DNA from: a virus
Direction: 5' to 3' (one strand)
DNA: 64,000 bases
UHGV virus genome: UHGV-1421865
The notes under the pieces are model-generated. The model had not been told where the DNA came from, did no database searches, and was given only the letters and a program-made list of their open reading frames with translations. The first letter of the stretch is position 1; each line of letters opens with the position of its first letter. The translations under genes and the position numbers were made by a program. Positions 7,623-29,523 of the stretch are shown here, one piece after another.

Positions 7623-7674
7623 AATTATTTTTCTATAGTATAGTACATTTGTACAGGACAAATCAAAACCTCTA

Positions 7675-7815: not shown

Positions 7816-7884
7816 TAAATCAGTGCATTTTACAGAATCTACACGTACAGATTTTTACATATACAACAAATATAAACCGACACA
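7815..7884 (+). promoter_or_regulatory. candidate promoter region upstream of giant gene (AAATCAGTGCA ... CAGATTTTTACATATA)
   Basis: Motif pair also present upstream of 26151 array. Confidence 0.3.
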
Positions 7885-10800
7885 ATGGCACGATCGTTAA
7901 TGGATACAATACGACAACGAGGAATTAGAACACCGTCTGGAGAAGAACCCGGATCCGAGGAACGCCCGTCGCTTGTAGACTCTATTATTTCCGGTGCGTT
8001 GGTGTCTTTGTTGTACGGCGTCGACGTATCACCCCGTGATGGAGACGACTTGTCTCGTCAAAGTCAGGCTCTTGGATCGAACAGAAACTCGTTATATAGT
8101 CTTATCGCAGATATTAAACGTACTCTGGAAAGTAGAAATGACGGTACACAACCTACTCTCGTTGAATTCAGTCCTACAACACAGTCTAAAATGGACAACA
8201 TCGTTAGATCGTTAGATAGACTAATTGATATTAAAGGTGTATTAGATACAACGGCTGTAGAATTAGAGTTTATACGTCGACTTTTAGAAAATTCTAATGT
8301 ATTATCTACATTGCCAGATAACAGAAACAGTATACAGCAATTAGATATTGTATTAAGATCCGACGGTAACGGTATAGATAAGTTGGTCGAGCTACTTGAT
8401 AAACTTAAAAATTTTAATATAGACGATGAAACAGCACAAAGACAGATTGTCGGTTTAACAGAAGTAGCTCGTGTTGTAAATACACTGAGTGATGTCAATA
8501 TAAATAGAGACGTACAAAATAATGTAAGTGTACTAAACGACATTATAAAAAACTTATCTAGTATACAAATACCGTCATCCGACACTAAACAAAAACAAAA
8601 CGCTACAGATTTCGGCGAAAGAATAACCAACATCATAAAAGCAATAAATAAGATATTTGAAGATGATACTTTTAAGAACTTAGCTAACAATATAAAGTCT
8701 ATAGAAGAAATTAAACATAAAAACGACCGCGACACTTTCGGTATCGGTATGATCGTCGGCTTCTTGGCATCTTTATCGGCCTTTATCGACAATGCAAATG
8801 TTATATCTAAAAAGAAAGTAAATAAAGGATTTAACAAGGTTTTAGTAAGCATGTCCTCTGAAATAGTAGATTCCCTATCAAAAGTAGCGCATAATATGGG
8901 ATCTGCAAAAAATGACATACTTGTCGTATCAGAAATGTTTTCCGGGTATGCTTCTTTTGTAGATACTGCATTGAAAATATCAGATAGATCGTTAGTATCG
9001 TTGTTATTGTTACATGTTAAATTAAAACTATCGTCGTCTGTATTTAATAAGGCATTTCTGGAACTTGTAACGTCTATAAAAGACATATCTATACAAATGG
9101 GTACTATCAGTGCCGTTACTAGAAGTGACTATAGACAACAAATCAATAACATTAAAGAAACATATTCGCAATTTAACGATACTATAGAAGCAATCGGTGA
9201 CGTTATTAGTATACGGTCGATGATAAAGACGATGCTGAAGTTGAAAGCGGCTAAGGGTACTGTCGACAGTGTTAATAAACTACTTACAGAAATGTTCACT
9301 GTTAGTATACCCCCGCGGGATGCTATGCAAGATCGTTTAGACTATTATATAGAACTCGCAACCGGTCTAAAACTAGTATTCGACGAATTACGACTAGTCA
9401 ACGACGCGGGTATCGGTAGACTCGACAAGTCCATAAAGAACCTCGTCGGTGCCGTTAAAGGACTAGATGCACTTGATAAAGTCGTCGGTAAGAAGACGGG
9501 TAAGAATGTAGGTCGTTTCATCCGAGGTTTCATGCACACCTTGTCTACTATCGACGAAAATGCCATCAATAATGCAGAGGAAACAAGTAAGACCTTCGCG
9601 TTGGTCGTCGGTGTCGCAGTCGGTGCATTACTCGTCGTTAGTGCAGCGTCCCTACTAATATCTTGGAAAGCTGTAGTAATGTTCGCTGCGGCGTTACCGT
9701 TGTTTATCTTAGGTGTATCGAAAGCGGCAGCGAAGATGAGCGGTCTTGATATTGACGACAGATCTATGAGTGCTTTTACTGATTTTGTTCTATCGTCTAC
9801 AATAGCGATGGCAGTCGGTAGTTTCTTGATGCGTTTTGTCCAACTTACCGACCTTACAATGTTCGTAGGAGGACTTATTGCTATGACAATCGGTGTCGGT
9901 ACGGCATATCGTATTATCTCCGCTATAGCAAATGCAGATACTATAAAGAATGTTGAAGCATTCAACCAGATGGTCTTGATGTCTGGTACAGTATTAGTTA
10001 TAGGTTCTTATATAACACAATATACCAATAAAGACGGTATATATAAGTTCCTCGGTATGCTCGGTGGCTTTACAGCCGGCGTCTCGTTAATCTATTTAGG
10101 ACTAGCAAAGATACTTAAAGACGACGTACTCAATGTATCAGAGCAATTTGTTGTGTTAGTCGCTGTATCAGGTGCTATTATGTTCGCCGGTGCATTGGTA
10201 TCTAAACTAATCGACCCCGTCGGTCTTATAACATTCACTGCATCGTTAGGTGCATTCTTGTTCGCCGTCAGCGGTATCTACATATTGCTGTCGAAGAAGA
10301 TTGGTAAGGAAGCCGTACAGATCGGTCGTGATTTCATGGTCTTGTTAGTCGTCTCGGGTGCTATCTTATTAGGCGCCGGTATGTTAATGCCTCTTGTTAA
10401 TAAAGAAGGTCTTATAACATTTACTGTGACACTCGGACTGTTCCTCTTAGGGGTCGGACTTGTATATAAGATAATGGGGTCTGTAGTCGACGACGCATTA
10501 AAGCACGCTCGTGACTTTACTATCCTCATCGCAGTGTCCGGTGCTGTACTCTTAGCCGGTGGTGCTATATTAGAAGCAATGGGTCCGAAAGGTATCGCAC
10601 ATGTTATACTGTTCGGTGTACTGTTATTCGGTTTTGTATACGGACTAACATGGATATACAAGAAGAATGCTAAAGATATAACCACTGCATTCGGTGTAGC
10701 GACAGGTCTTGCATTGTTAGTTGCTGTGTCCGGTGCTGTACTGTTAGCCGGTGGTGCTATACTTGAATTGATGGGCAAAGAAGGTGCCTGGTATACCGTC

Positions 10801-13800
10801 TTGTTCGGTGTCATGCTACTGGGCTTTGTCGCTGCACTAACATGGATATATAAGAAGAACGCTACAGATATTGCGATGTCGATACCGACGGCACTAGCAC
10901 TAGGTATACTCGTTGCTATTTCGGGTGCTGTACTACTGGCAGGGGGCAAAGTCATTGCCGATAACAAAGACATGTGGTGGGCAGTTCCTGAATTTGCGGC
11001 GATAACGGTGTTGTTCGTCGGCGGCATGTCGACTGTAATGTACTTATTAAGTCAAATAAAGGGTAATCTAGTCCAAGGTGGTTTAGCGATGTTGGCTATC
11101 GCAGGCATCACATGGTTGATGGGTAAAGCCCTCCAAGAGGTTGCCCTGGTTGCTCGTATCGCATCCGTCGATGAGGTAAAGCAAGTAATGTTGATAGGGG
11201 GTGTCCTAATTACGGGTGTGACGGCTATCGCCGCTGCATTGGGCGCTATCATAACAAGCGGTGTCGGAGCACTACTGTTGGGGGCCGGTGCCGCCGCACT
11301 TGCTGGTGTAATCGGCTTTGTATTCGCTATCAGTGAAATGGTGCGAAATGTCGTAGTGACAGCTACAATACTAAACAATGCACCTGAAATAGACTTTGAT
11401 AAGGTAAATGGTCTCGTCACCGGTATGTTCGGCATCGCTAAAAATATGGTAGAGGCGGCACCGTGGACGCTGATGGTGAAAGCAAAACTTGTGAGTAGTA
11501 CCATAATGGATCTTATCGGATCACTGGGTACTGTTGCTCAAGTAGTAAAAGACTTGGCAGACTTGAAGATTCCTATATATAACGGTACTAAATTATCCGG
11601 TTATATTACAATAGGCGACGAAACATTCGCTACTGTTGCCTCTAATATAGAAAAAATAATAACGGCGGTAACACGACCGCTTGTCGATACGATAAAAAAG
11701 AACCCAGATCTGTTCGGCACAGGTGATTTCTTCTCGAACCCATTTGTCGATACACCGGCTGTAGCCGCTGCGAAGATGGTAGGACATGTCGGTAATTCGT
11801 TAAGTAAGGTGGCACAGGGTGTTAAAGACTTAGCCGAACTTAAGATTCCTGTATATAACGGTACTACATTAACTAAGTATGTTACATTAGGCAACGAGAC
11901 GTTCAGTAAGGTCTCTACAAACGTAAAGAGTCTTATACTGGCAGTAGCTCGTCCGATTGTGTCGACTATTAAAGACAATCCAGATCTATTCAAAGAAGGT
12001 GCATTCAACGACAGTCCGGCTGTGAATGCGGCGAAAGCCGTCGGTGAAATAGGAAAAACGTTGACGCCGTTGGCACAGGGTGTTCAGTTCTGGTCGATGT
12101 TGAAGGTACCCGTTTACGAAGGTGAAAAGATAAAAGAATACATCACATTAGGAGACGATCAATTTGCACAGGTTGCTATAAATATAAAACGTGTAATCGA
12201 AGCTGTTGGCGGCGCACTTGTCACCACAGTAAAAAACAGTACGTTTATATTCGGTAGCTGGAACGGTGGTCTGATTAGTTCAGATGCACCAGCGTTGAAT
12301 GCGTCCAAGTCTATCTTACTGATTTCCAATTCGTTATCTCCAATAGCACAATGTCTGGCATATTATGCGTCTGGTAAATTCCCTATTATAACAGGATATG
12401 ATGCTCATGGCAAACCGATAATCGACTTGTCGACTACGATAACACAGGACACGATGAAGGTTGCACAACAGAACATCAAAGACGTTCTCACAGCTATATT
12501 AGATGTATTAAAAGACGTACAAGGCGATTTCGGAGGCGACTGGTTCGGTAGCGGTTCGGATGTAGAAAGAGCAAGTAAGGCTGTTACAGAAGTAGCGAAT
12601 TCGTTAAAGACAATGGTCGACGTCGTCGGTAATATGAGTAAAACGGACTTTGCAACTGTTAATGCTCAAGTAAATACGACACAGAAAAACATCAAGAGTC
12701 TATTAGAAGGTGTTGTTAGTATATTCACATTATTTAATAGTACAGCTAAAGATGCCGAGGGTAAAGACATGACAAACGGTTGGTTGAGTCGTATTTGGAA
12801 TGGTAAGAATAAGACAATAGAACAATTCTTAAACGACACTGCCGGTGATATTAAGTCGGCTATTGGTGGTATAGTAGATGCTTCTAAGGAAATAAGTAAG
12901 TTATTTACTGAAATAAGTGATCTTCAAAAGACAATTACCGATAACCAGAATTCAGTTACTAGCTTTATTAAACAAACACCTGTTGAGAAGGGTAGTAAAG
13001 AGATGCAATATGTTATTGTCAAGAACATAGGTAATATACTGTCTACGTTCACTGCGATAGTTAGTAGTATAGACAAAGAAGAACTCTCAAGCAACGCTTC
13101 GGATATTAAAACGATTGCTAAAGACGTTGATACATTCACCGACGGGTTCGGAGATATTCTAAAGTCACTTACCAAGGCGATGCAGTCGACCAATAGTTTT
13201 GTGAGTGCCGATCGCAGTGCGTTGGGTAACTTACAAGCGGTATTAAATGAATACAAGAACAGTATGTTGAAAATGGTAACTGTATTTAAGGGTATCGGAT
13301 CTGTTTCGATGCGAGATATTGCAGACACCACAATGTACCAGGACAGAGCGTTTAATCTACTTATAAGAACAGCACAGAACGCTTCGAACGCCGGAGGTAA
13401 CGGTTATTCTATCCTCGCGAAGGGTATTCTCGAGATTGCTGAAGCCGAAGCACAGCTTGGTCAGAACCAGACATTCGCTCAGCACGCCGCTGTCATGGAA
13501 CGGTATGTACAGACTATCAATGCGGTGAAGGTCGGCAACTTAGACAGGCTGAACAGTTTCGCTATCAGCTTAAACAACCTGGCAGAAAAGTTAGGAAATG
13601 TCGATAAACTCACTCATGCGTTAGCTGTGCATTTGACCGGTGTTCTTAATAGACTGGTTAAGGAAATAGAACGTGCCGAAAAGACCATCAATAACGCCGA
13701 TAAGATGCAGGTTCGTCGCTTCGATATGATCAAGAAATCTGTTAAGGACGTACAAAAGATTATGGACAAGAAGCTCGTTGTAGAAGTGAACCAAGGCATG

Positions 13801-14022
13801 GCTGGCGATGCCACATTAGAAGGCGGGGGTGTAGACTACGGTGGTACATCTAATTCAAGCACGACGATGAACGTTTCGGCGCCGTCCGGTTCTAGCACCG
13901 ACACTACTCCTACCACTAATAAAGCAAATAAAAAGAACGGTAGTATAGGTCTTACAGAACTCAACGAAGCACTCAGTGCAAACAACGACGTACTTGTTCG
14001 TAAATTAAAAGGTCGAAAATAG
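7885..14022 (+). CDS. giant 2045-aa membrane-spanning virion protein (tape-measure or ejection-protein candidate)
   Basis: Single 6.1 kb ORF; coiled-coil-like N-terminal third; at least 10 hydrophobic helices with 4 repeats of SGA.LLAGGAILE.MG...LFGV.L.GFV..LTWIYKKNA.DI; three repeats of about 85 aa KDLADLKIPIYNGT... Confidence 0.5.
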   Translation: MARSLMDTIRQRGIRTPSGEEPGSEERPSLVDSIISGALVSLLYGVDVSPRDGDDLSRQSQALGSNRNSLYSLIADIKRTLESRNDGTQPTLVEFSPTTQSKMDNIVRSLDRLIDIKGVLDTTAVELEFIRRLLENSNVLSTLPDNRNSIQQLDIVLRSDGNGIDKLVELLDKLKNFNIDDETAQRQIVGLTEVARVVNTLSDVNINRDVQNNVSVLNDIIKNLSSIQIPSSDTKQKQNATDFGERITNIIKAINKIFEDDTFKNLANNIKSIEEIKHKNDRDTFGIGMIVGFLASLSAFIDNANVISKKKVNKGFNKVLVSMSSEIVDSLSKVAHNMGSAKNDILVVSEMFSGYASFVDTALKISDRSLVSLLLLHVKLKLSSSVFNKAFLELVTSIKDISIQMGTISAVTRSDYRQQINNIKETYSQFNDTIEAIGDVISIRSMIKTMLKLKAAKGTVDSVNKLLTEMFTVSIPPRDAMQDRLDYYIELATGLKLVFDELRLVNDAGIGRLDKSIKNLVGAVKGLDALDKVVGKKTGKNVGRFIRGFMHTLSTIDENAINNAEETSKTFALVVGVAVGALLVVSAASLLISWKAVVMFAAALPLFILGVSKAAAKMSGLDIDDRSMSAFTDFVLSSTIAMAVGSFLMRFVQLTDLTMFVGGLIAMTIGVGTAYRIISAIANADTIKNVEAFNQMVLMSGTVLVIGSYITQYTNKDGIYKFLGMLGGFTAGVSLIYLGLAKILKDDVLNVSEQFVVLVAVSGAIMFAGALVSKLIDPVGLITFTASLGAFLFAVSGIYILLSKKIGKEAVQIGRDFMVLLVVSGAILLGAGMLMPLVNKEGLITFTVTLGLFLLGVGLVYKIMGSVVDDALKHARDFTILIAVSGAVLLAGGAILEAMGPKGIAHVILFGVLLFGFVYGLTWIYKKNAKDITTAFGVATGLALLVAVSGAVLLAGGAILELMGKEGAWYTVLFGVMLLGFVAALTWIYKKNATDIAMSIPTALALGILVAISGAVLLAGGKVIADNKDMWWAVPEFAAITVLFVGGMSTVMYLLSQIKGNLVQGGLAMLAIAGITWLMGKALQEVALVARIASVDEVKQVMLIGGVLITGVTAIAAALGAIITSGVGALLLGAGAAALAGVIGFVFAISEMVRNVVVTATILNNAPEIDFDKVNGLVTGMFGIAKNMVEAAPWTLMVKAKLVSSTIMDLIGSLGTVAQVVKDLADLKIPIYNGTKLSGYITIGDETFATVASNIEKIITAVTRPLVDTIKKNPDLFGTGDFFSNPFVDTPAVAAAKMVGHVGNSLSKVAQGVKDLAELKIPVYNGTTLTKYVTLGNETFSKVSTNVKSLILAVARPIVSTIKDNPDLFKEGAFNDSPAVNAAKAVGEIGKTLTPLAQGVQFWSMLKVPVYEGEKIKEYITLGDDQFAQVAINIKRVIEAVGGALVTTVKNSTFIFGSWNGGLISSDAPALNASKSILLISNSLSPIAQCLAYYASGKFPIITGYDAHGKPIIDLSTTITQDTMKVAQQNIKDVLTAILDVLKDVQGDFGGDWFGSGSDVERASKAVTEVANSLKTMVDVVGNMSKTDFATVNAQVNTTQKNIKSLLEGVVSIFTLFNSTAKDAEGKDMTNGWLSRIWNGKNKTIEQFLNDTAGDIKSAIGGIVDASKEISKLFTEISDLQKTITDNQNSVTSFIKQTPVEKGSKEMQYVIVKNIGNILSTFTAIVSSIDKEELSSNASDIKTIAKDVDTFTDGFGDILKSLTKAMQSTNSFVSADRSALGNLQAVLNEYKNSMLKMVTVFKGIGSVSMRDIADTTMYQDRAFNLLIRTAQNASNAGGNGYSILAKGILEIAEAEAQLGQNQTFAQHAAVMERYVQTINAVKVGNLDRLNSFAISLNNLAEKLGNVDKLTHALAVHLTGVLNRLVKEIERAEKTINNADKMQVRRFDMIKKSVKDVQKIMDKKLVVEVNQGMAGDATLEGGGVDYGGTSNSSTTMNVSAPSGSSTDTTPTTNKANKKNGSIGLTELNEALSANNDVLVRKLKGRK

Positions 14023-15627: not shown

Positions 15628-16893
15628 ATGGATATTATTGAAATGTTTGCGGGTGTTGGTGGTTTTAGAGTTGGCTTTGAACGTGTGAATGAAAATCATA
15701 AAGAAGAGCCGAAGTTCTTTAACACAATATGGAGTAATCAATTTGAACCTTCAACAAAAATACAACACGCTTCACGTACATACCAACGAGTTTTTGGCCA
15801 AGACGGTCATTTTAATCAAGATATTGCAACAGTGAAAAGTGATGATATTCCTATTCACGATATGTTGGTCGGTGGTTTTCCTTGTCAGGATTATAGTGTT
15901 GCACGTGTGCTTAGTCAAGCATCGGGTATTGAAGGAAAGAGTGGTGTATTATGGTGGCAAATTGTTAGAATTATTAAAGATAAAGGAGACAAAGGTCCAA
16001 AGATTTTGTTTTTGGAGAATGTAGACAGACTACTAAGTTCTCCTGCCAAACAACGAGGCCGTGATTTTGCCATTATTTTAGAATCATTGAATGATTTAGG
16101 TTATATTGTCGAATGGAGAATAATTAATGCAGCTGAATATGGTATGCCTCAACGAAGAAAACGTACCTACATTCTTGCATACAAGAAAGGAACAACAATT
16201 GCAAAAAAAATAAAAGAACCAACAGAATGGCTGTTTAATGATGGAGTATTTGCAAAAGCCTTTCCTGTTAGTGATTACTGTGAAGAAACACCAATTGTTG
16301 GTATTCCTTTGAAAAGTAACCCTAATTGGGACTTGGTCGATTTATCACAAGAATTCAATAATGGTGGAAAGAAAACGCCATTTCTAAATGCAGGGTTGAT
16401 GATTGATGGTGTCTTTTACACATACAAGACAAACCCATCATATAATGGAAAATTCACATTCTTAGGGGACATTCTTGTAAGTGGTAAAGATAGAGAATTA
16501 ATTACAGAGGATTTTTATATTTCAGAAAATGAGTTACCCAAGTGGAAATACTTAAAAGGTTCAAAACGTGAAATTCGTAAAACGAAAGATGGTAATGAAT
16601 TTACTTACACAGAGGGAGCAATGGTTTTTCCTGACCCACTTGATAAGGCATCAAGAACTATTATAACATCTGAAGGTGGTAAGACACCATCTCGTTTCAA
16701 ACACGTCATTAAAGACCCAATAAACGGAAGATATAGAAGACTTGTTCCATTAGAACTTGAACGATTAGATATGTTTCCTGACAATCACACAGAAGGAGAA
16801 AACGACGTAAAACGAGCATTCTTTATGGGCAATGCGCTTGTTTGTGGTGTAATCACAAAAGTTGGTGAAGAAATACGGAAAAGATTGATATGA
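15628..16893 (+). CDS. DNA (cytosine-5)-methyltransferase
   Basis: Motif I FAGVGGF, motif IV GGFPCQDYS, motif VI LFLENVDRLL, motif VIII QRRKRTYI, motif X FFMGNALV; low GC. Confidence 0.85.
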   Translation: MDIIEMFAGVGGFRVGFERVNENHKEEPKFFNTIWSNQFEPSTKIQHASRTYQRVFGQDGHFNQDIATVKSDDIPIHDMLVGGFPCQDYSVARVLSQASGIEGKSGVLWWQIVRIIKDKGDKGPKILFLENVDRLLSSPAKQRGRDFAIILESLNDLGYIVEWRIINAAEYGMPQRRKRTYILAYKKGTTIAKKIKEPTEWLFNDGVFAKAFPVSDYCEETPIVGIPLKSNPNWDLVDLSQEFNNGGKKTPFLNAGLMIDGVFYTYKTNPSYNGKFTFLGDILVSGKDRELITEDFYISENELPKWKYLKGSKREIRKTKDGNEFTYTEGAMVFPDPLDKASRTIITSEGGKTPSRFKHVIKDPINGRYRRLVPLELERLDMFPDNHTEGENDVKRAFFMGNALVCGVITKVGEEIRKRLI

Positions 16894-17082
16894 TTTGGAT
16901 TATTAACCAACACCGTGGTATAATGATTTAAACTATAATGGTTGATTTATGTTACTCTTCCTTAATAGAACTACCAAAAGGTTCAAAGGTAAAAGGTATA
17001 TGTCAAAACGACACAGGTACAGTAGAGTTCAAATTTACACACAGAGCATCGTTGAGATTATTATTTATAACTAGTATAATAT

Positions 17083-17781
17083 ATGTCAAATTTAGGAACA
17101 GCACATATCCTTGTCGGTGAACTGGCAAAGGATTATAGTAAACTTTCTACAGAAGAAAAAAATAAACTAGCACGTACCTTGTTCGGCATTTCCGATAAGG
17201 CGTCGTCTGAGTCTACACCAAAACCTACACTACCTACTAGTGATCTATCGTCTATCACAGAAATAACATCCGGCGATGCCGTTGCAACTGTTAAACCTGT
17301 AGCAGTTACTGAACCTACAGTTGTAGTAGGAGAAACAAAAGAGATTACCATATCGGCTGTGAAAGTATCTACTTTTTATAGCGATAAAGCGATGAAACTC
17401 CCCGAAGGGATTGTCGCAAACGCCGTAGAGGTCAATAAAGAGAACGGTACAGTCAAACTTAAAGACATCGGTCGTGTAGTACCTGCAAATACCGGTGTTA
17501 TCCTCACAGGAGAGTCCGGAACCTATACACTAACGTCGACTACAGAAGCTGCAAAGGAATTCGGTAAAAACGACCTTAAAGGTTCATTGACAGACATTCC
17601 TGCAAGTGAAGTATCCACATCGTCTGATGTTTATTATGCGCTGGCTGTTAATAAAGGAACTCCTTGTTTCGGTATTGTAGAAACCGATATTCCGGCAGGC
17701 AAAGCTTACTTCACTGTTCCTAAGTCTGATTCGACGGATAGTCGATTCCCCAATGGTTTTACTATTTCAAATCAAGACTAA
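17083..17781 (+). CDS. hypothetical Ser/Thr-rich protein
   Basis: 232 aa ORF. Confidence 0.4.
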   Translation: MSNLGTAHILVGELAKDYSKLSTEEKNKLARTLFGISDKASSESTPKPTLPTSDLSSITEITSGDAVATVKPVAVTEPTVVVGETKEITISAVKVSTFYSDKAMKLPEGIVANAVEVNKENGTVKLKDIGRVVPANTGVILTGESGTYTLTSTTEAAKEFGKNDLKGSLTDIPASEVSTSSDVYYALAVNKGTPCFGIVETDIPAGKAYFTVPKSDSTDSRFPNGFTISNQD

Positions 17782-17797
17782 CTTTGTACACAGAAAA

Positions 17798-17843
17798 AAA
17801 ATAACAGTCGAGCAACTCATTATGAATTGTTCGACTGTTATTA
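17798..17843. terminator. bidirectional hairpin terminator between convergent genes
   Basis: ATAACAGTCGA...TCGACTGTTAT, 11-bp stem flanked by A-run and T-run. Confidence 0.55.
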
Positions 17844-17845
17844 TG

Positions 17846-18958
17846 TTAATACAGTTCTATACGTAGACCTAACTTATTGGCTTTTAACATCTTAGATGAT
17901 GTAGAGTTTATATCACCCGTGAAGAGTACTTTCGCGTCTGACCAACTGTTTGTTTGAACGTACTGTGGATTCTTCTCCAGAAATTCTTTCTTAGACGCAT
18001 ATTTAGACGGACTACCCGTCAACATCACAGGCACTTGTGTAGTCTTGCTTGTACCGACGTGTAAGTTTGTAAGTTGACACATACCAATGCCGTAGTCAGT
18101 AAGTGCGTTAACCAACGCATTGAATTGCAACCATTTAGGTGATTGGTGATTATAGACCCAACTGTACCCTTCCGATGCGACACCACTGAAATCGGCTTGT
18201 CCAGTACCGATGAACTGCGCACATTTCTTAGCGCATGTGGAACCACATTTGTTGAAATTCAACGACTTGATGATGTCTACTAATGTGATTTGTCGTCGGT
18301 AATTCTTAAACGATTCGGCGGCTTTCTGCCCTCGTTTACCTTTCAACGCTTGTTCTATCTGTTCCGGTCTTACTTGGAGTATATTTGTTAAACTCTCGAA
18401 GTTATGTTGTAAAGTGTCGTACAACGCAGCCGCTACAGACGGACCGATGTTAGGTATCTTCAGAGTTTGTGCAGACGCGATGAACTGCCCACGGTTACTC
18501 ACAAGACCCACCAGATGACAACCTTCTACAACAGCATCATTTGGTAAACTACCGAGGTCCTTTGATGGATTGTCAAGTACAGAATAAAGAAACGGAATAA
18601 TGTCACCGGCTAAGGAAACTTCAATCTCCGTACCTATACCTACTTGATTATCAATAAGATAGCCGTAGTTATGTCCAGAACATTTAGTGACTATTTTATC
18701 AAGTAGTACAACAGGTTCAAAGACAATCACCGGTGTATACTCTCCGGTCTTACCTTGGTTCCATACAATATCTACTACCTTCGTCTTTTGAATTTCCGGA
18801 ACAAATTTCACAGCAACGCAGTCCGACGGTCGAACTTTATCGGTATTCTGTTCTCTGACAGGGAGTATAGGCTTGATAACAAACCCGTCCAGAGCATATT
18901 CACACTCTTCGGTACGGTATTTGTTAAAGTCGTTATATAGTTCTTGTAAGGTACTCAT
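17846..18958 (-). CDS. NAD-dependent DNA ligase, C-terminal polypeptide (NTase motifs IV-V, OB, HhH and BRCT-like regions)
   Basis: Begins inside adenylation domain: LDGFVIKP (motif IV), VAVKF (motif V); start ATG overlaps stop of upstream TS-like gene (TAATG). Confidence 0.7.
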   Translation of the reverse strand: MSTLQELYNDFNKYRTEECEYALDGFVIKPILPVREQNTDKVRPSDCVAVKFVPEIQKTKVVDIVWNQGKTGEYTPVIVFEPVVLLDKIVTKCSGHNYGYLIDNQVGIGTEIEVSLAGDIIPFLYSVLDNPSKDLGSLPNDAVVEGCHLVGLVSNRGQFIASAQTLKIPNIGPSVAAALYDTLQHNFESLTNILQVRPEQIEQALKGKRGQKAAESFKNYRRQITLVDIIKSLNFNKCGSTCAKKCAQFIGTGQADFSGVASEGYSWVYNHQSPKWLQFNALVNALTDYGIGMCQLTNLHVGTSKTTQVPVMLTGSPSKYASKKEFLEKNPQYVQTNSWSDAKVLFTGDINSTSSKMLKANKLGLRIELY

Positions 18959-19926
18959 TATACTGCGATAGGTGCTTTAATAACAGGGGGTGTATAAGAA
19001 CCGTCGAAATGTTTCTTTACCTTTATCTGTCGGCTTTCGTACATCTCCAAAATATAACACAAATAAGCGTCTAAGGACATCGGTACATTCACAGTAGACA
19101 TGGTCATATCCAAGGTGCATTCTACGGTATGATAACATTGCGTCACATAGTCATCGGTATTAGTAAAGAACGAATCGATATATTCCTGTACAGCATCTTT
19201 ATGATTGTCGTAGATATGGAAATTATCGGCGGTATAGTATATATTTCCGCATTTTACTTTATCGATACCATATTTCTTTTTGAACCATTCATGGTTGACC
19301 TTAAAATAGCCGTTTATAAACCAGTTGAACCAAGAACAGAATATGAAATTATACGGCGCACCCAAGAACGCGTCGTTACTGCGAATATGAGCATGTAGGT
19401 TGTGTGTAAGTACTGTATTCCCAGCGTCGTCTGTGTCCAACTGAAATGTAACGTTATATTCGAACATACAAGGTGCCAGTGCCATTTCCGGTAGGTCGTT
19501 CACATTCCAAAGTGAGATAATATGTCGGCGCGAGAATAAATTGTTATTGAAACCTTCAAATAGTTGTTTCAACTGATCAATACCGTTAAAGTTTCGAAAC
19601 TGATAACCGTACGCCTTACCGATAGTACCATCTTCCTGTACCCATTCATCCCAATAGGTAACACCGTGGTCGCGAAGCCACTGTACGTCGGTCCGTCCTT
19701 GCAGCATCCAGAGTAGTTCGGTGAGTGCCATTCGAGGATAAACACGTTTTCCGTTCACCACCATCAGTCGAACTTCGTCGGACGGTGAAGGAGACTGTTC
19801 AAATACAAAGTTGATACCGTAAGAGTTCAACGTACTGATGTCGGTTCTATTCGACATTTTCTGTGTGACAGTCGACAATATGTTAGTAAGCTGTCTTACA
19901 TAGTCTGTTTCAAATAGTTGTGTCAT
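18958..19926 (-). CDS. thymidylate synthase family enzyme (ThyA or dUMP-hydroxymethylase-like) with about 100-aa C-terminal extension
   Basis: LTELLWMLQGRTDV, RRHIISLWNVNDL, MALAPCM (catalytic Cys), PYN (Asn, uracil-specific); 322 aa versus about 260 typical. Confidence 0.75.
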   Translation of the reverse strand: MTQLFETDYVRQLTNILSTVTQKMSNRTDISTLNSYGINFVFEQSPSPSDEVRLMVVNGKRVYPRMALTELLWMLQGRTDVQWLRDHGVTYWDEWVQEDGTIGKAYGYQFRNFNGIDQLKQLFEGFNNNLFSRRHIISLWNVNDLPEMALAPCMFEYNVTFQLDTDDAGNTVLTHNLHAHIRSNDAFLGAPYNFIFCSWFNWFINGYFKVNHEWFKKKYGIDKVKCGNIYYTADNFHIYDNHKDAVQEYIDSFFTNTDDYVTQCYHTVECTLDMTMSTVNVPMSLDAYLCYILEMYESRQIKVKKHFDGSYTPPVIKAPIAV

Positions 19927-20602
19927 TGTTTAATGGATATTCTAGTTTATAAAATTTAGGTGTCTTGGGAAGTCCGTACCATTCTCGTTCTGTCCACTTA
20001 CCGTTTTCTAATACTCTATAATCGTATATGATAATGTCTAAATCATCGTCGTATTCGTGAGATGTACTATTCAAGACACCCGATACCATCGAACGAGGAC
20101 TCGAGAACTTATCTTTGTATTTCTCTTCAAATGTCTTCAGTTTTACCAGCACCTCACCACGTATAACTGCCTGTGCACCATATACATAGTAGTCTGGATA
20201 AACCGATCGAATTTGCTTAATAAGGTGGCTACGCAAGTCTTTACCGTAATTCCCGTCGCCCCGAGACGATATGCTGCCAACAGTACCGTTCGCATTGATA
20301 ACACATTCGAAAGAACAACCGTCGAATTTCGGGGTCACTTCTATGGCATTATCACCGACATATTTTTTAATATCTTCTGTATAATTAGAAAAATCATCTA
20401 AGCTATGAACTTGGACCTTGTAGAGGGATCCCATTATAAACGGATGCCGTACAGTATATGTTGTACTGGATTTAGTACCGATATAAGACTTGTTCTCGAG
20501 ACCTAGCTCTTTCTCTAACGCGTCAAATTCTGTGTCAGACATTATCTCCTGCCCATTGTAGTATGCTTCTTTTGCTTTATGGTATAATTCTTCTTTTGTC
20601 AT
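19910..20602 (-). CDS. NAD-dependent DNA ligase, N-terminal polypeptide (domain Ia plus NTase motif I)
   Basis: YYNGQEIMSDTEFDALEKEL (domain Ia), HPFIMGSL, KxDG lysine motif TPKFDGCSF; ends 17 nt after start of TS-like gene. Confidence 0.7.
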   Translation of the reverse strand: MTKEELYHKAKEAYYNGQEIMSDTEFDALEKELGLENKSYIGTKSSTTYTVRHPFIMGSLYKVQVHSLDDFSNYTEDIKKYVGDNAIEVTPKFDGCSFECVINANGTVGSISSRGDGNYGKDLRSHLIKQIRSVYPDYYVYGAQAVIRGEVLVKLKTFEEKYKDKFSSPRSMVSGVLNSTSHEYDDDLDIIIYDYRVLENGKWTEREWYGLPKTPKFYKLEYPLNNDTTI

Positions 20603-20684
20603 CTTATCATCATATAGTTTATACTTTATATAGTATAGTTTACAAGAAAAATCAGCTACTTAAAACATTGTTTTGGGTCTACTT

Positions 20685-20835
20685 TGACAGTTTCTATTTC
20701 GTGTACCGACGTGTACAAATCTAGAATCGTCATAAAGGCACTTTAGAGCTCCTGTATCGCGTCGAAATTATCTAGCCTTACTACAACCAAGGTCAACTAA
20801 TTTGTACGCGATACAGGAGAGATTTTTATTGAGTT
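20685..20835 (+). repeat. conserved about 150-nt intergenic element, copy D (core inverted relative to flanks)
   Basis: Flanks in the same orientation as copies E-H, but the core CCTGTATCGCGTC-gaaattatctagcctt...-CGCGATACAGGA matches copy A core as read on the opposite flank orientation. Confidence 0.55.
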
Positions 20836-20924
20836 TCAAATGGGTACACTGACGCCGTGTGGGACACGTTGTGTGTACCGTCTTGATGCTTTGCATCAAA
20901 TTGTTCACAAAGTGAACATAATTA

Positions 20925-20965
20925 AGACCTCAGTAGACTTATAACAATCTACTGAGGTCTCTAAC
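20925..20965. terminator. hairpin AGACCTCAGTAGA...TCTACTGAGGTCT
   Basis: 13-bp perfect stem. Confidence 0.45.
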
Positions 20966-21039
20966 TATGACTACTAAATCAATTTATAAATCAATCAAAT
21001 TTCGGCAGTTTATAAGTCAGTAGGGACCTTGGTTTTTAA

Positions 21040-21172
21040 TCTCTTGCTCTATTAGTACACGCAACTCGTTGTAAGTAGCAGGTTTTAATTTAGCCGATTT
21101 CGTATTCGATGTGATCTTTAGACGTTCGTTAATGAAATTTTGTAGACTCATTTATTCGCTAGTATTGTTTAT
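21040..21172 (-). pseudogene. DUF285 N-module remnant (truncated after about 44 codons)
   Basis: Translates MSLQNFINERLKITSNTKSAKLKPATYNELRVLIEQEIKNQGPY then stop; no repeats follow. Confidence 0.4.
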
Positions 21173-21810
21173 CAGTCTTTGAATTTTGGTTGAAGTTGTG
21201 GATTAGTTCCCATATTAGGACATTTATCAAATGTCATATAATACTTGATTACTTTCGACACATCCCACTCAGACAAGTCACAATTGAAACGTTCGCAAAA
21301 ATAGAACATATAACTCATATTTTTAACATTGGTGACATTCCAAGAACTTAAATCTACATTTAGCTTTTTACACCAAGAGAACATATCTTCCATGTTTTCT
21401 ACTTTACTAACGTTCCAATTTTCTATACCTTTGCCTTCAAATTTTTTACATTCATAAAACATGAAAGACATGTTCGTTACATTAGAGGTGTTCCAATTTT
21501 CTACTCCATCGCCTCTGAAGTTATCTTGACCTACAAACATGTTTTGCATAGTAGTTACATTTGATGTATTCCACTGGTCAATTTTGATATTTCCGATGTT
21601 TAATTTATAAAACAAACTAACCATATCTGTAATCTCCGATGTATCTATAAAGTTCAAATCGGCGTTCGGACCTTGTTCTTTTAGTTCTTGTTCTATAATA
21701 GATCTGAGTTCGTCTTTTGTTTTAGGTCTCAATCTTAATGGTTGGGTATCGGGCGTAATCTTTAATCGTTCTGTGATTAAACTATCGTGAATGTATCGTG
21801 AAAGTGACAT
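21172..21810 (-). CDS. DUF285-repeat protein; C-terminal 71 aa identical to 26151..26696
   Basis: N-module MSLSRYIHDSLITERLKITPD...; 3' 214 bp identical in inverted orientation to 26478..26694. Confidence 0.6.
   Translation of the reverse strand: MSLSRYIHDSLITERLKITPDTQPLRLRPKTKDELRSIIEQELKEQGPNADLNFIDTSEITDMVSLFYKLNIGNIKIDQWNTSNVTTMQNMFVGQDNFRGDGVENWNTSNVTNMSFMFYECKKFEGKGIENWNVSKVENMEDMFSWCKKLNVDLSSWNVTNVKNMSYMFYFCERFNCDLSEWDVSKVIKYYMTFDKCPNMGTNPQLQPKFKD
21177..21392. repeat. left arm of perfect 214-bp inverted repeat
   Basis: Reverse complement identical to 26478..26694. Confidence 0.8.
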
Positions 21811-24135: not shown

Positions 24136-25998
24136 TCACACAGAAGCAGATCGTCTGTCGGAGATATTGTCTTTATCGAACCATAATGTAATAGCGGCAT
24201 CCGCAGCGTCGTCTTTTGTGAAATAGAGATAGTTCTTACTTCGCATCATCTCTTTGTACTGTGCCGTATTCTGTCCACCGAGACCTTTGATGTGTTTGAT
24301 GTCGCAGCCTTTCAATTTTGACGGATACTTCTTTTGGAAATCCCTAAATTCGTCTAATGTATAGAAATTATAACTATCTTTCTTCGACGATGCGATGATA
24401 ATAGGACTGATAACACGGCAGATTAGTTTCTGTTCGAACAGTTCGGGGAAATGATTAAAGAACACTAACAACAGCGACGCAATCTTATCCCCGTCATAGT
24501 CCATATCGGTAGAGATAACGATACGAGAGAACTTTAGATCTTTTTTATTATTGTATTTGCCCCATTGTAGACCTATCACTTTTACGATGTCGTTAAAGAC
24601 TTGGTTCGTCATCACCTTGGTTGGTTTAAGCCCATAGGTATTGAGGGGAACACCGCGCATTAGATAACCGGCTTGATTATCCGGATTTCTACCGGCTCTG
24701 AATCCCGATGCCGCGGAATCGCCTTCGAAAATCCATAGTTCGTTGTCCTGAGTCTTTTTAGAGTTACAGTTGATGAACTTGTCGTTACGAAGTAGCTTAC
24801 CGGCGTCTTTATTTAGTTTTCGTAGCTTCTTTGCGTCTTCGGCTTGCTCTTTCTTGGTATACCAGTCTAAGATGTTGTCGATAATCTCAGACTTCAGAAC
24901 TTTGTTTATAACATCTTGCGATAGTTCGTAATTGGGGTCCTTCGACAGGTTGTTGGTAAGACATTCTTTCGTCTGTGAGTCGTAAGTCGGATTATATACG
25001 GTGAATTTACAAAACAAGCTATACTGTGCGTCTATGGACTGCAATGTCGTTTGTATTTTCTTCTTTTTAAGTAAGAACTCTTGAATAGCCTTATTAAGTA
25101 CGCTCTTAATAGACTGAATGTGTGTGCCTCTGGAACATTCTACACCGTTTACAAAGCCTACTGTTACTTGTTTATCGTCCGACGGCAGTATGGTGTATTC
25201 TTTAATTGTATCCTTATATGATACTACTTTATTAGATACATCAAGACCGTACAGTTTAATATAGTCGTCAAAGTTGCCGAATTTGAATTTGTGGTGCTCG
25301 GTATTGTCGTTATAAGTCACTTCGAGACCTGGATTCGCAGCGGCGGCGTCGGCACATCGTTTGATAATAAGCGGTACAATGTCTTTAATAGAGAAAGCTT
25401 CGAATCTACTGTCGTCGATAACAAATATCGTCCGCATATAATGTTTCTTAGACGGCTTTACTTTTAGATCGTCGCAGAGCTCCCGCATATTGTTCTTCCA
25501 TGTACGATGGTATGCTTTCTTGCCGTCGGCACATTCGATAACAAATTCTTTAGAGAAGATATTGGCCAGCGACGCACCGACACCGTTTGTTCCGACAACA
25601 TTGCGGGACTCATCGTCGTTATAATTAGAAGATGTACGAAGTCGACCGAAAATGAACTCGGGAAGATAACAACCGGCGGTGCTGTGCTTTTGAACGGCGA
25701 TACCCCCGTTGTCTTCTACCGTTACCTTGTTTGTCTTCAAGTCGATTGTAACATTGATTTTATTAAGCCCCATATTAGAATCGCGACGGTATTCGTCGCA
25801 CGAGTTTGAGATAACTTCGTCGATAATCTTCAACACACCCGGTACGTAACTAATTTCCGACTGAACTATTACGTCACCCGACCAATGATAGGTATTAGAC
25901 TGCGTTAGTTTAGTCGATCCGATGTACATACCCGGACGGAGGAGGATATGATCTAGTTCGTCTAATTCTTTATATATATCTTCAATTTTCTTTTTCAT
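24136..25998 (-). CDS. type II DNA topoisomerase large subunit (GyrB-like ATPase plus Toprim; T4 gp39/gp60-like)
   Basis: HILLRPGMYIGS ATPase N-terminus, GTNGVGAS, Toprim EGDSAASG. Confidence 0.85.
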   Translation of the reverse strand: MKKKIEDIYKELDELDHILLRPGMYIGSTKLTQSNTYHWSGDVIVQSEISYVPGVLKIIDEVISNSCDEYRRDSNMGLNKINVTIDLKTNKVTVEDNGGIAVQKHSTAGCYLPEFIFGRLRTSSNYNDDESRNVVGTNGVGASLANIFSKEFVIECADGKKAYHRTWKNNMRELCDDLKVKPSKKHYMRTIFVIDDSRFEAFSIKDIVPLIIKRCADAAAANPGLEVTYNDNTEHHKFKFGNFDDYIKLYGLDVSNKVVSYKDTIKEYTILPSDDKQVTVGFVNGVECSRGTHIQSIKSVLNKAIQEFLLKKKKIQTTLQSIDAQYSLFCKFTVYNPTYDSQTKECLTNNLSKDPNYELSQDVINKVLKSEIIDNILDWYTKKEQAEDAKKLRKLNKDAGKLLRNDKFINCNSKKTQDNELWIFEGDSAASGFRAGRNPDNQAGYLMRGVPLNTYGLKPTKVMTNQVFNDIVKVIGLQWGKYNNKKDLKFSRIVISTDMDYDGDKIASLLLVFFNHFPELFEQKLICRVISPIIIASSKKDSYNFYTLDEFRDFQKKYPSKLKGCDIKHIKGLGGQNTAQYKEMMRSKNYLYFTKDDAADAAITLWFDKDNISDRRSASV

Positions 25999-26150: not shown

Positions 26151-26696
26151 ATGTCACTTTCAACATTCATCACAGAACGATTAAAGATTACATCTAACTC
26201 TAAATCAGCTATACACAAACCATCGTCGAGAGACGAACTCAAATCTATTATAGAACAAGAACTGGAACGTCAAGGTCCGGATGCCGATTTGAACCATATT
26301 GACGTATCTTACATTACAGATATGTCTTATTTATTTTACAAATTAAACATCGAAAACATTAAAATCGACCAGTGGGACGTTTCCAATGTCACTAATATGG
26401 AAGGGATGTTTTATGAATGTAGTAATTTTGAAGGCAACGGCCTAGAAAACTGGGACGTATCGAACGTCACTACTATGGAAGATATGTTCTCTTGGTGTAA
26501 AAAGCTAAATGTAGATTTAAGTTCTTGGAATGTCACCAATGTTAAAAATATGAGTTATATGTTCTATTTTTGCGAACGTTTCAATTGTGACTTGTCTGAG
26601 TGGGATGTGTCGAAAGTAATCAAGTATTATATGACATTTGATAAATGTCCTAATATGGGAACTAATCCACAACTTCAACCAAAATTCAAACAGTAA
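26151..26696 (+). CDS. DUF285-repeat protein (N-module type MSLS.FITERLKITS)
   Basis: N-module plus repeats; 3' 214 bp identical in inverted orientation to 21177..21392. Confidence 0.6.
   Translation: MSLSTFITERLKITSNSKSAIHKPSSRDELKSIIEQELERQGPDADLNHIDVSYITDMSYLFYKLNIENIKIDQWDVSNVTNMEGMFYECSNFEGNGLENWDVSNVTTMEDMFSWCKKLNVDLSSWNVTNVKNMSYMFYFCERFNCDLSEWDVSKVIKYYMTFDKCPNMGTNPQLQPKFKQ
26478..26694. repeat. right arm of perfect 214-bp inverted repeat
   Basis: Reverse complement identical to 21177..21392. Confidence 0.8.
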
Positions 26697-26702
26697 TCAA
26701 CA

Positions 26703-27299
26703 ATGGCAATACACATCACATCAAATACAAAATCTCTCAGAGTAAAACCTACGGACGAAACAGAATTACGTGACATTGTCGAACAAGAGTTAGACAGTCA
26801 AGGTCCAGATGCCGACCTGAACTTCATTGATACGTCTCTTATAACAGATATGAGGGGGCTATTTTATAGTTTTAGAGGTATTAGAAATATCAAGATAGAC
26901 AAGTGGGACACTTCAAATGTTTTGGACATGCGTTCTATGTTCGGCAAATGTTACGAATTAAACACTGATCTATCTAAGTGGGACGTTTCAAATGTTAAAA
27001 ATATGTCACACATGTTCATCGAATGTTATAAATTCAATTCGGACCTATCCGGTTGGGACACATCAAGTGCGGTTAACATGGAATCTATGTTCGACAGCTG
27101 TACAATTTTTGAATCCGACTTATCCGAATGGAATACCAGTAAAGTTACCCACATGTCTAGTATGTTTCAAAAATGCTCTAAATTCGAGTCTGACCTATCC
27201 GCTTGGGATGTATCGAATGTCAAAAAGAACGGTGGGATGTTTTATATGTGTACTAAAATGATGGGTAAAAAACATCTACAACCTAAATTTAATATATAA
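26703..27299 (+). CDS. DUF285-repeat protein (N-module type MAIHITS)
   Basis: MAIHITSNTKSLRVKPTDETELRDIVEQELDSQGPDADLNFIDTSLITDM plus about 6 repeats. Confidence 0.6.
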   Translation: MAIHITSNTKSLRVKPTDETELRDIVEQELDSQGPDADLNFIDTSLITDMRGLFYSFRGIRNIKIDKWDTSNVLDMRSMFGKCYELNTDLSKWDVSNVKNMSHMFIECYKFNSDLSGWDTSSAVNMESMFDSCTIFESDLSEWNTSKVTHMSSMFQKCSKFESDLSAWDVSNVKKNGGMFYMCTKMMGKKHLQPKFNI

Positions 27300-27304
27300 A
27301 TAAT

Positions 27305-28081
27305 ATGTCACTTTCAAAATACATCACAGAACGGTTAAAGATTACGTCGAATACAAAATCGGCCAATAACCAACATACATTGTTTCCTAAAGATTTAAAG
27401 GAGCTCCTACCGATATTAGAAGATGAAATTAAAAAACAAGGTCCAGATGCTGACTTGAATCACATTGACGTATCGCAAATTACAGAAATGCACGATTTAT
27501 TTTATAGAATTTACATTAGAAACATCAAAGTCGACAAATGGGACGTGTCGAATGTAGTGAATATGCGTAAAGCGTTTACTGGTCATAAAGACTTTAACGC
27601 TGACCTATCATCCTGGGATGTATCAAATGTAGAGAATATGCGTAGTATGTTTGAAGGATGCCCGAACTTCAATGCTGACCTGTCAGAATGGGATGTATCT
27701 AAGTGTAGAGATTTCTGTAACGTATTTAATGGATGTGAAAAATTCAACCATGATCTGTCTAATTGGGATGTTTCTAAGGCTTGGATTACAGCAGGTATGT
27801 TTCAGGATTGTAATAGTTTTGAATCAGATTTATCTTCTTGGAATGTATCTAATGTAAAGGACATGAATAGGATGTTCCAAAACTGTTGGAAATTCAATTC
27901 CGATCTGTCTGGTTGGAATGTATCAAAAGTTGAAACAGTATCACAAATGTTCGAGAATTGTACAAGATTTAGAAGTAATTTATCTAAATGGGATGTAAAT
28001 CGTGTAAAAACTTGGTATAAGTTCAGTGCTGAGTGTCCAAATTTTAATGATAAGAGTAATTTGCCTGAAAAACTTAGATAG
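27305..28081 (+). CDS. DUF285-repeat protein
   Basis: MSLSKYITERLKITSNTKSA... plus about 8 repeats. Confidence 0.6.
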   Translation: MSLSKYITERLKITSNTKSANNQHTLFPKDLKELLPILEDEIKKQGPDADLNHIDVSQITEMHDLFYRIYIRNIKVDKWDVSNVVNMRKAFTGHKDFNADLSSWDVSNVENMRSMFEGCPNFNADLSEWDVSKCRDFCNVFNGCEKFNHDLSNWDVSKAWITAGMFQDCNSFESDLSSWNVSNVKDMNRMFQNCWKFNSDLSGWNVSKVETVSQMFENCTRFRSNLSKWDVNRVKTWYKFSAECPNFNDKSNLPEKLR

Positions 28082-28113
28082 ATTTAAACAATACTAACTA
28101 TATTTAATACACT

Positions 28114-28965
28114 ATGTCACTTTCAAAATACATCACAGAACGATTAAAAATTACGTCAAATAGCAAATCGGCTACTAGACTAAAACCTAAAACAAGATAT
28201 GAGCTTAGTTCGTTGATAGGGGAAGAATTAGAACGTCAAGGTCCCGATGCCGATTTGAACTTTATCGACACATCGGATATTACAGACATGTCTGAGTTGT
28301 TTTCTGGGTTTAACATAGAAAACATCAAAATAGACCAGTGGGACGTTTCTAATGTCGATAATATGTATCGTATGTTTAATTTATGTACTAGCTATAATGG
28401 TGACTTGAGCAATTGGGACGTTTCTAATGTTGAGAACATGTATGGTATGTTTAACGGTTGTATGTCATTTACCGGAGAAGGTATAGGAAATTGGAATGTC
28501 TTAAATGTTACTAATATGTCGACAATGTTTATGGGTTGTAAAGTATTGAATCCTGACCTATCTGGATGGGACGTTTCTAATGTCAATGACATGCGCGCTA
28601 TGTTCGATATGGCAAATTCTTTTGAAGGGAAAGGTTTAGATAAATGGCGTACCACCAAGCTTACTGATACAAAACAGATGTTTTATGGTTGTGATAATTT
28701 CAATTGTGACTTGTCTGACTGGGATGTGTCTAACGTAACAACCATGTTATCTATGTTTGAGTCTTGTTATAAATTTGATTCTAATTTGGGTAAGTGGGAC
28801 GTTAGCAATGTGACGGATATGAAATTTATGTTCAGAAACTGTTATAATTTCAAAGGCATCGGTTTGGAAATGTGGAATACTTCAAATGTAATTACAATGA
28901 ATTCAATGTTCGACGGTTGTAAGAAATTAAATGTCGATTTAAGTTCTTGGAATGTTTGTTTCTAA
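28114..28965 (+). CDS. DUF285-repeat protein
   Basis: MSLSKYITERLKITSNSKSA... plus about 10 repeats; first 45 nt nearly identical to 27305 start. Confidence 0.6.
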   Translation: MSLSKYITERLKITSNSKSATRLKPKTRYELSSLIGEELERQGPDADLNFIDTSDITDMSELFSGFNIENIKIDQWDVSNVDNMYRMFNLCTSYNGDLSNWDVSNVENMYGMFNGCMSFTGEGIGNWNVLNVTNMSTMFMGCKVLNPDLSGWDVSNVNDMRAMFDMANSFEGKGLDKWRTTKLTDTKQMFYGCDNFNCDLSDWDVSNVTTMLSMFESCYKFDSNLGKWDVSNVTDMKFMFRNCYNFKGIGLEMWNTSNVITMNSMFDGCKKLNVDLSSWNVCF

Positions 28966-29044
28966 AGTAGGACCTTATAATACATTTAAGCTAAAATCTG
29001 GCACCCACCCAAATTCAATATCTAAAAATAACACAGTTTCACTA

Positions 29045-29506: not shown

Positions 29507-29523
29507 ATAAATAAATCAAAAAT

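Follow-up and report, generated by a model that had tools for sequence, protein, structure and literature searches.

A candidate two-polypeptide DNA ligase divided within its nucleotidyltransferase domain by a nested thymidylate synthase gene in a large phage genome

What becomes of a DNA ligase when another gene comes to lie inside its catalytic domain? This question is raised by a minus-strand locus in a stretch of 64,000 nucleotides (nt) from virus genome UHGV-1421865, the whole of which we call the window. At this locus an NAD-dependent DNA ligase (LigA) is encoded as an N-terminal polypeptide (LigN) and a C-terminal polypeptide (LigC), with a gene for a thymidylate synthase (TS) of the ThyA type between them (Table 1). 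A sequence-only reading of this DNA had described three intact open reading frames (ORFs) with a TS-family gene inside the adenylation domain of the ligase. All three ORFs are indeed intact where that reading had placed them, reading of the sequence at both ends of the TS gene confirms the 17-nt overlap and the TAATG junction that it described, and family matches together with alignments to structures agree that the adenylation domain is the part that is interrupted. From the genes we conclude that LigN and LigC are probably translated together with the nested thyA gene and probably associate, without a covalent bond, into a two-subunit LigA whose active site draws on both chains.

Division of the ligase between two chains

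Profile searches assign the two polypeptides to different parts of LigA. LigN matches PF01653 (E 5e-13) and covers positions 14-225 of 656 in the phage LigA profile phrog_3869 and positions 5-219 of 652 in TIGR00575. LigC matches the OB-fold family PF03120 (E 5e-15, 55.6 bits with a cut-off of 32.9 bits), covers positions 254-643 of phrog_3869 and 253-379 of TIGR00575, and is also matched by phrog_3498 (E 2e-9). When aligned with the LigA structures 9hu3, 3pn1 and 2owo, LigN covers residues 114-234 of the E. coli enzyme (2owo) and its TPKFDG sits over the KLDG of motif I, with LigN residues 10-33 (AKEAYYNG..D..FD.LE) aligned to domain Ia of 9hu3. The corresponding alignment of LigC to 1v9p and 2owo covers E. 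coli residues 281-391 and places DGFVIK and VAVKF over motifs IV and V.

These comparisons account for every catalytic motif. LigN carries domain Ia (YYNG...D..FD), motif I (K92-F-D-G), SRGDG, motif III (R148-G-E150) and motif IIIa (Y193). Its motif residues are invariant in the alignment with ligase homologues, and Y14, Y15, D23 and D27 of domain Ia, the region that binds nicotinamide mononucleotide, are invariant or nearly so. LigC contains the last helix and strands of the nucleotidyltransferase (NTase) domain, in which motif IV (D24-G-F-V-I-K29) and motif V (K51) lie. The OB fold comes next, and after it what appear to be a helical, HhH-like region and a BRCT-like C-terminus. All five NTase motifs are thus present, I, III and IIIa in LigN and IV and V in LigC, and neither ORF alone holds the full set. 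Since LigN ends after motif IIIa and LigC starts before motif IV, the cut lies inside the NTase domain between these motifs. The sequence-only reading had assigned domain Ia and the KFDG lysine motif to LigN, which PF01653, TIGR00575 and the structure alignments support, and motifs IV and V with the OB region to LigC, which the PF03120 match and the alignment to 2owo and 1v9p support. It had also seen that the catalytic domain is split before motif IV, and the position of that break is now narrowed. Nor can correction of a frameshift fuse the halves, since at least 8 contigs from different samples and sources have a 969-nt gene in between.

With respect to the C-terminal part, PF03119 gives no C4 zinc finger match for the window ligase at E ≤ 1, and a single Cys is located between the OB fold and the helical region of LigC. 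By reading, the Lak megaphage ligase and the consensus of contiguous homologues likewise have no C4 cluster there. Pfam HhH models match LigC weakly (E 0.08-0.26), and no BRCT match to LigC was obtained from Pfam.

A structure model was obtained by running AlphaFold (AF2) on LigN and LigC joined as one chain with an alignment of 39 contiguous homologues, a run that was taken instead of a single-sequence prediction with an unusable pLDDT of 32. The alignment-based model has a mean pLDDT of 81, and junction residues 221-230 score 59. In this model the cut falls in a loop of low confidence, with a short predicted strand (219-222) before it and, after it, a long helix (230-247) running up to the strand of motif IV; a helical region (385-527) and a beta-alpha-beta module (539-599) are predicted further on. 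Foldseek matches the model to the full-length LigA structures 2owo, 4glx and 5tt5 (E ~1e-28) and also to 9hu3 and 9i5i ("PR1 phage heterodimeric DNA ligase").

The three ORFs are co-oriented, overlap or nearly abut, and are bracketed by two hairpins (Table 1), of which the inverted repeat is probably a bidirectional terminator. Sigma-70-like matches in the region are no more numerous than the shuffled expectation, so the promoter match upstream of LigN is a weak candidate. The window uses the standard genetic code, with dense ORFs that stop at 38 TAA, 31 TGA and 14 TAG codons. Stop-codon recoding was considered as the origin of the split and rejected because all three stops are in use with dense ORFs and because TS lies in a different frame.

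The cassette across lineages and its contiguous relatives

An identical LigN protein is found on eight contigs from different samples and sources, a human oral metagenome included, the longest of which is 223 kb. The same LigN-TS-LigC order recurs in six further lineages (L002, L005, L006, L093, L095 and L097), seven with the window. Across these seven, LigN measures 225-231 amino acids (aa), TS 321-322 aa and LigC 370-398 aa, amino-acid identity is 73-96%, and the flanking genes differ in some. The junctions vary as well: LigN and TS are joined by a 17-nt overlap, ATGA, TAATG or a TAA followed 4 nt later by the next gene, and TS and LigC by TAATG, a 1-nt gap or spacers of 36 and 51 nt. In every lineage ...FYKLxxxLK is closed by a stop and M(S/N)(T/K)LQELYN begins with an ATG. 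Even the reading-frame relation of LigN to LigC differs, being 0 in the window, where they are 1644 nt apart, +1 in L005 and +2 in L006.

Pairwise ratios of nonsynonymous to synonymous substitution (dN/dS) are 0.06-0.18 for LigN, 0.05-0.13 for TS and 0.08-0.17 for LigC, in comparisons with dS of 0.18-2.8, which indicates that all three genes are under purifying selection. We also defined an invariant set of 107 alignment columns that are unchanged in the window and in the 39 contiguous homologues. Of these columns, 104-107 are kept in each of the five split lineages besides the window whose LigC is complete, including K92, D94, G95, E150, Y193, D254, G255, K259 and K281. Together, the low dN/dS values and the retained residues argue that both halves have been maintained as working parts of a ligase long after the split.

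Two features of LigC vary within the clade. With the conserved ATG as its start, LigC measures 370 aa in L002, L005 and the window and 384-398 aa in L093, L095 and L097, so the C-terminal end past the BRCT-like module is variable. Additionally, the spacer between TS and LigC in L005 (1787-1837) and L006 (1869-1904) contains repeated ACTGTAA units (TATGAGCTATAACTGTAAGAGTTATTTTACTGTAA...), which look like a small insertion or duplication that uncoupled the TS and LigC ORFs.

Comparison with contiguous ligases indicates that the cut is clean and that no ligase residues have been lost. Where contiguous homologues read ...FYQ(E/I)YP(L/K)LN(E/A)(A/Q)TFERIYNDF..., members of the split clade read ...FYKLxxxLK and a stop, then M(N/S)(K/T)LQELYNDF. 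The end of LigN and the start of LigC are adjacent homologous positions, and neither terminus has extra residues.

The distribution of the two forms indicates that the split arose only once. A search against 1.8 billion cluster representatives places the split clade in one 50%-identity cluster, and the next relatives beyond it are nearly all 600-690 aa. LigC relatives at 72-100% identity are all LigC-only proteins (19 clusters, on contigs of up to 228 kb), and those at ≤45% identity are overwhelmingly proteins of 603-644 aa with adenylation and OB domains, P0206 and P0210 being short exceptions. A check for in-frame stops in 30 IMG/VR relatives showed that a single ORF runs unbroken through the junction in every one; ThyA is absent nearby in these 30, and ThyX lies ~3 kb upstream in 7. 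The closest GenBank relatives are the Lak megaphage ligases at 38-43% identity, and the Lak-A1 ligase, when read through, is a single ORF of 702 aa. Relatives inspected at or below ~54% identity have either one uninterrupted ligase ORF or one broken by in-frame TAG alone, with the exception of one contig with a TAA. TS, in turn, is present in every split genome. Among GenBank phages no close relative was found at the DNA level, the lone match being 63 nt of TS in Enterococcus phages, and a scan of IMG/VR with the LigC protein alone found nothing.

Among short LigN-like and LigC-like proteins of distant lineages, two candidates for a further split were rejected, P0206 (locus L099) as a low-coverage contig without room for the N-terminal half and P0378 (L131) as a LigA broken by transposase-like sequence. 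The exceptional TAA is found in L004 (1156-1176), a relative at 54% identity without a TS insertion that is known from a single contig. The codon is Glu in the close homologue P0008 and lies three codons upstream of the position of the window LigC Met, with an ATG five codons after it; a sequencing error, a pseudogene or a second split that arose independently in this loop could each account for it. In L003 (53% identity), which has a ThyX gene directly upstream of the ligase, in-frame TAG codons at 3659-3661 and 3713-3715 interrupt an otherwise contiguous ligase, which points to TAG recoding (code 15) of the kind seen in Lak and crAss-like phages.

A composite ligase and its alternatives

We propose that a ThyA-type gene, complete with start and stop codons of its own, entered the LigA gene in an ancestor of a phage clade that has genomes of ~200-230 kb and is found in human oral and gut samples. 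The site of entry would encode a surface loop of the NTase domain, between motif IIIa and the helix before motif IV. Either order of events, split first or insertion first, would fit, all split genomes carrying TS; direct repeats flanking TS were not found. The three ORFs are most likely read from one transcript, and termination-reinitiation coupling is probable because of the ATGA, TAATG and 1-nt-gap junctions, which would yield LigN, TS and LigC in near-equimolar amounts. LigN would supply domain Ia with motifs I, III and IIIa, and LigC would supply motifs IV and V, the OB fold, the helical region and the BRCT-like end. The two chains would associate non-covalently and rebuild the NTase beta-sheet, and the resulting active site would combine the adenylylated lysine of one chain with the motif IV and V lysines of the other. 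Residues D285, K290 and K314 in motifs IV and V of E. coli LigA were reportedly found to be essential by Sriskanda, Zhu and Shuman, and LigN alone should consequently be inactive. The nested ThyA would presumably work with the dihydrofolate reductase (DHFR) of the phage, which would recycle folate.

The sequence-only reading had left the choice between a functional two-subunit ligase and a recent insertion. The presence of the cassette in seven lineages, the purifying selection and the retained residues favor the former and argue against the latter. A recent insertion that inactivated the ligase and left two decaying pseudogene fragments is suggested by the resemblance of a cut catalytic domain to a gene disruption, and by the in-frame TAA at nearly the same place in the distant relative L004. 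Both halves, however, are intact in seven diverged lineages with dN/dS of 0.06-0.18 at dS of up to ~2, the five lineages tested retain 104-107 of the 107 invariant residues, and the junction start and stop codons are conserved, all of which makes this explanation highly improbable. The window is apparently metagenome-derived, so that an assembly or chimera artefact also has to be considered; given the same LigN on eight contigs from separate samples and sources, up to 223 kb in length, and six further diverged versions with the same layout, its probability is close to nil. A very unlikely alternative would restore a single polypeptide by RNA splicing, by protein splicing through a split intein or by ribosomal bypass, with TS located in an intron. 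Introns and inteins are common in phage replication genes, and LigN and LigC of the window share a reading frame across the 1644 nt. This relation is not kept in L005 (+1) or L006 (+2), however, and junction spacers range from -17 to +51 nt. No group I or group II intron was found when 17000-21500 was scanned permissively against Rfam (E ≤ 1), the TS ORF overlaps both of its neighbors and so leaves no room for ribozyme elements, and neither half has extra residues for an intein. A bypass of 969 nt would be far beyond the hop in T4 gene 60, which is 50 nt.

It is rather unlikely, if less so, that both halves are functional without acting as a joint ligase, for example with LigC as a DNA- or nick-binding protein and LigN as an NAD-binding or NAD-consuming one. 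Purifying selection alone is no proof of joint action, and LigB of the T5 type is a stand-alone DNA-binding module. The residues that have been kept, however, are the ligase catalytic set on both sides of the cut, motifs IV and V of LigC would be useless without motif I, and both genes are linked in one unit in all seven lineages.

Several points weigh against the two-subunit ligase that we favor. The AF2 model, being of a covalent fusion, says nothing on the association of separate chains. Neither half has gained interaction tails, unlike the split NrdA of phage Aeh1, so assembly would need fold complementarity alone. In L093, LigN is changed at two otherwise invariant residues (D116N and D122G). 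Finally, the genome is roughly 200-220 kb, and a second, intact ligase may be encoded outside of the 64-kb window.

A more extensive version of the two-subunit proposal would hold that LigN and LigC are an obligate heterodimer whose NTase fold is built from two chains with translation coupled around the nested gene, and also that an Asn/Asp toggle in TS leads some of these phages to make 5-methyl-dCMP rather than dTMP. As a whole this is possible, and we regard it as doubtful. If the two-subunit ligase does exist, it would be a case of natural fragment complementation inside the covalent nucleotidyltransferase fold and would reveal a place at which the LigA backbone can be broken, with possible use for engineered split ligases. 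It would also extend the concept of genes in pieces from homing-endonuclease insertions to an ordinary metabolic gene. Annotation pipelines will label such a locus as a pair of partial ligases or as a pseudogene, although the enzyme encoded is probably complete. The switch between Asn and Asp in the nested TS offers a simple, testable marker for possible differences in DNA base composition among close uncultured phages.

The nested synthase, its surroundings and known systems

The inserted ORF matches thymidylate synthase families alone in Pfam, PHROGs and NCBIfam and is not a homing endonuclease. Its match to PF00303 is strong (E 1e-46, 159.7 bits versus a 24.3-bit cut-off), and its NCBIfam matches are to ThyA models only, all below the equivalog cut-offs (for example, TIGR03284 at 100.3 versus 108.35 bits). 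The protein keeps C153, R27, R133, R134, R182, S183, D185, N193, H237 and Y239. In alignment C153, R27, R133, R134, R182 and N193 correspond to C146, R21, R126, R127, R166 and N177 of E. coli ThyA, and equivalents of E. coli E58, W80, W83, Y94, S167, D169, H207 and Y209 are likewise retained. The catalytic Cys and the uracil-specifying Asn named by the sequence-only reading are thus present. Its C-terminal extension of about 100 aa is not: the protein ends in a canonical ThyA tail (...VIKAPIAV; compare ALKAPVAV in the bacterial ThyA P0139), and the ~57 extra residues are internal insertions common to a subfamily of 300-340 aa that is found mostly on large metagenomic contigs. The C-terminus of E. 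coli ThyA is KAPVAI.

Whether this protein is a true ThyA or a dUMP-modifying variant had been left open. In this family, members that use uracil have Asn and those that use cytosine Asp at the base-specifying position, T4 dCMP hydroxymethylase lacks the C-terminal tail with which TS closes over the folate, and hydroxymethylases have no need for DHFR (PMC5175136). The DHFR gene, also named in the sequence-only reading, is present (Table 1). With Asn, the tail and a DHFR gene all in the window, a true ThyA is the best reading for this genome, and the window TS most likely makes dTMP from dUMP. No ligase was found within 6 kb of the TS homologue in any of 80 IMG/VR loci; a TS beside or inside a ligase is therefore not general for this TS subfamily.

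The base-specifying residue differs within the split clade. The codon for N193 (window 19348-19350) encodes Asn in the window, L006 and L097 and Asp in L005, L002, L093 and L095, in TS proteins that are 78-96% identical. Identity groups the window, L006, L097 and L005 together and L002, L093 and L095 together, so that Asp looks ancestral in the clade and Asn the product of a single change. In the wider subfamily Asp is the majority residue here (66 of 120 TS homologues, with Asn in 49), and the ThyA C-terminal tail is retained in most of them. Some split-ligase phages may thus methylate dCMP rather than dUMP. Pfam searches of the genes flanking the cassette in the Asp-type lineages gave no informative match. 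As for neighboring genes, two genes past LigC the window encodes a C5-cytosine DNA methyltransferase (PF00145), L097 (Asn-type) has an N6_Mtase/Eco57I gene at 7160-8575 in the equivalent neighborhood, and in the four Asp-type lineages, a very small sample, no methyltransferase was seen within ~3.4-5 kb beyond LigC. A link between the Asn or Asp type of TS and methyltransferase neighbors is speculative.

Elsewhere in the window, a family B DNA polymerase ORF covers the exonuclease domain and continues into the polymerase domain as far as motif A (DFASLYPS). A YGDTDS motif was not found anywhere in the 64 kb, and the ORFs downstream of the polymerase are of the DUF4406 and DUF285 families; this polymerase is probably also encoded in pieces, with the remainder elsewhere in the genome. 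At least 17 paralogous ORFs have DUF285 (PF03382) repeats, a large expansion for 64 kb, and DUF285 genes also stand beside the ligase cassette in sister lineages. Replication-module genes include GyrB-like and GyrA-like type II topoisomerase subunits ~9 kb apart, a radical SAM protein and a 5'-3' exonuclease, together with a weak match to a gp32-like single-stranded DNA-binding protein. A long plus-strand ORF (2045 aa) has no Pfam match at E ≤ 0.001, and no tRNA genes were found in the window.

Table 1. Coordinates of the ligase cassette and of other features in the 64-kb window
Feature	Position	Strand	Remarks
LigN, N-terminal ligase polypeptide	19910-20602	minus	230 aa, intact ORF
TS, nested thymidylate synthase, ThyA-type	18958-19926	minus	322 aa, 969 nt, intact ORF
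LigC, C-terminal ligase polypeptide	17846-18958	minus	370 aa, intact ORF
Junction 1, LigN/TS	19910-19926	minus	TS ATG 17 nt inside the end of LigN, counting the LigN TGA stop
Junction 2, TS/LigC	18956-18960	minus	TAATG; TS TAA and LigC ATG share one base
Terminator-like hairpin, 16-bp stem	20924-20961	minus	ends upstream gene, 5' limit of three-gene unit; consensus match only
Sigma-70-like promoter match, TTGACC-18-GATAAT	20767-20796	minus	~165 nt upstream of LigN ATG
Inverted repeat, 26-nt arms	17795-17847		at LigC stop, between convergent genes
DHFR	3680-4210	minus	PF00186, E 2e-54
C5-cytosine DNA methyltransferase	15628-16893	plus	PF00145
Family B DNA polymerase ORF	719-2239	minus	506 aa
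Long ORF	7885-14022	plus	2045 aa
Replication-module context	24136-25998, 35270-36628, 51715-52764, 56938-57903, 62238-63278	minus	
DUF285 ORFs	45-392, 2705-3409, 4210-4719, 21172-21810, 47313-48017, 60618-61400		
DUF285 tandem arrays	26151-30840, 37780-40052		seven and four ORFs, respectively

Our search of the literature on split or heterodimeric LigA turned up the T5 annotation only. Phage T5 encodes LigA as subunits A and B from two adjacent genes, ligA and ligB, whose products act together on nicked DNA (PMC3632103), as we propose for LigN and LigC. The two systems differ in where the enzyme is divided. In the T5 annotation, adenylation and OB domains belong to ligA and a Zn finger and BRCT to ligB, the B subunits of T5 and PR1 comprising Zn finger, HhH and BRCT, and chain A of the PR1 ligase (9hu3, 9i5i; 339 aa) contains the whole NTase domain and the OB fold as T5 subunit A does. 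The T5 and PR1 cut is therefore at a domain boundary after the OB fold, whereas here it is inside the NTase domain between motifs IIIa and IV, and 9hu3 chain A aligns to both LigN and LigC. Furthermore, the T5 ligase genes are separated by ~200 nt with promoters and no gene, and the genes here by TS. The closest sequence relatives, LigA of Lak megaphages and other large gut phages (38-54% identity), share the architecture of domain Ia, NTase, OB fold, helical region and BRCT-like end without a C4 zinc finger. They differ in being single ORFs of ~600-700 aa with no ThyA nearby, some having ThyX ~3 kb upstream.

As for the nested gene, its fold and catalytic residues match those of ThyA and its dCMP and dUMP hydroxymethylase relatives, and its folate-closing tail is that of a TS (PMC5175136). 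It differs from ThyA in its ~57 aa of internal insertions and its sub-equivalog NCBIfam scores, and in that sister lineages have Asp instead of Asn at the base-specifying position. A further likeness is to nrdA of Aeromonas phage Aeh1, where an inserted ORF has likewise divided an essential enzyme of DNA metabolism within its catalytic region, and the resulting pieces come together without a covalent link. In that nrdA-a / mobE / nrdA-b arrangement, new tail sequences are essential for function (PMC3045599). The Aeh1 insert is the homing endonuclease mobE, while here the insert is a metabolic ThyA, the target is a ligase and no tails have been added. Another case of genes in pieces is T4 gene 39 and gene 60. 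Consequently, genes in pieces and heterodimeric phage LigA are both already known, and what this locus appears to add to them is a ligase cut inside its NTase domain by a metabolic gene.

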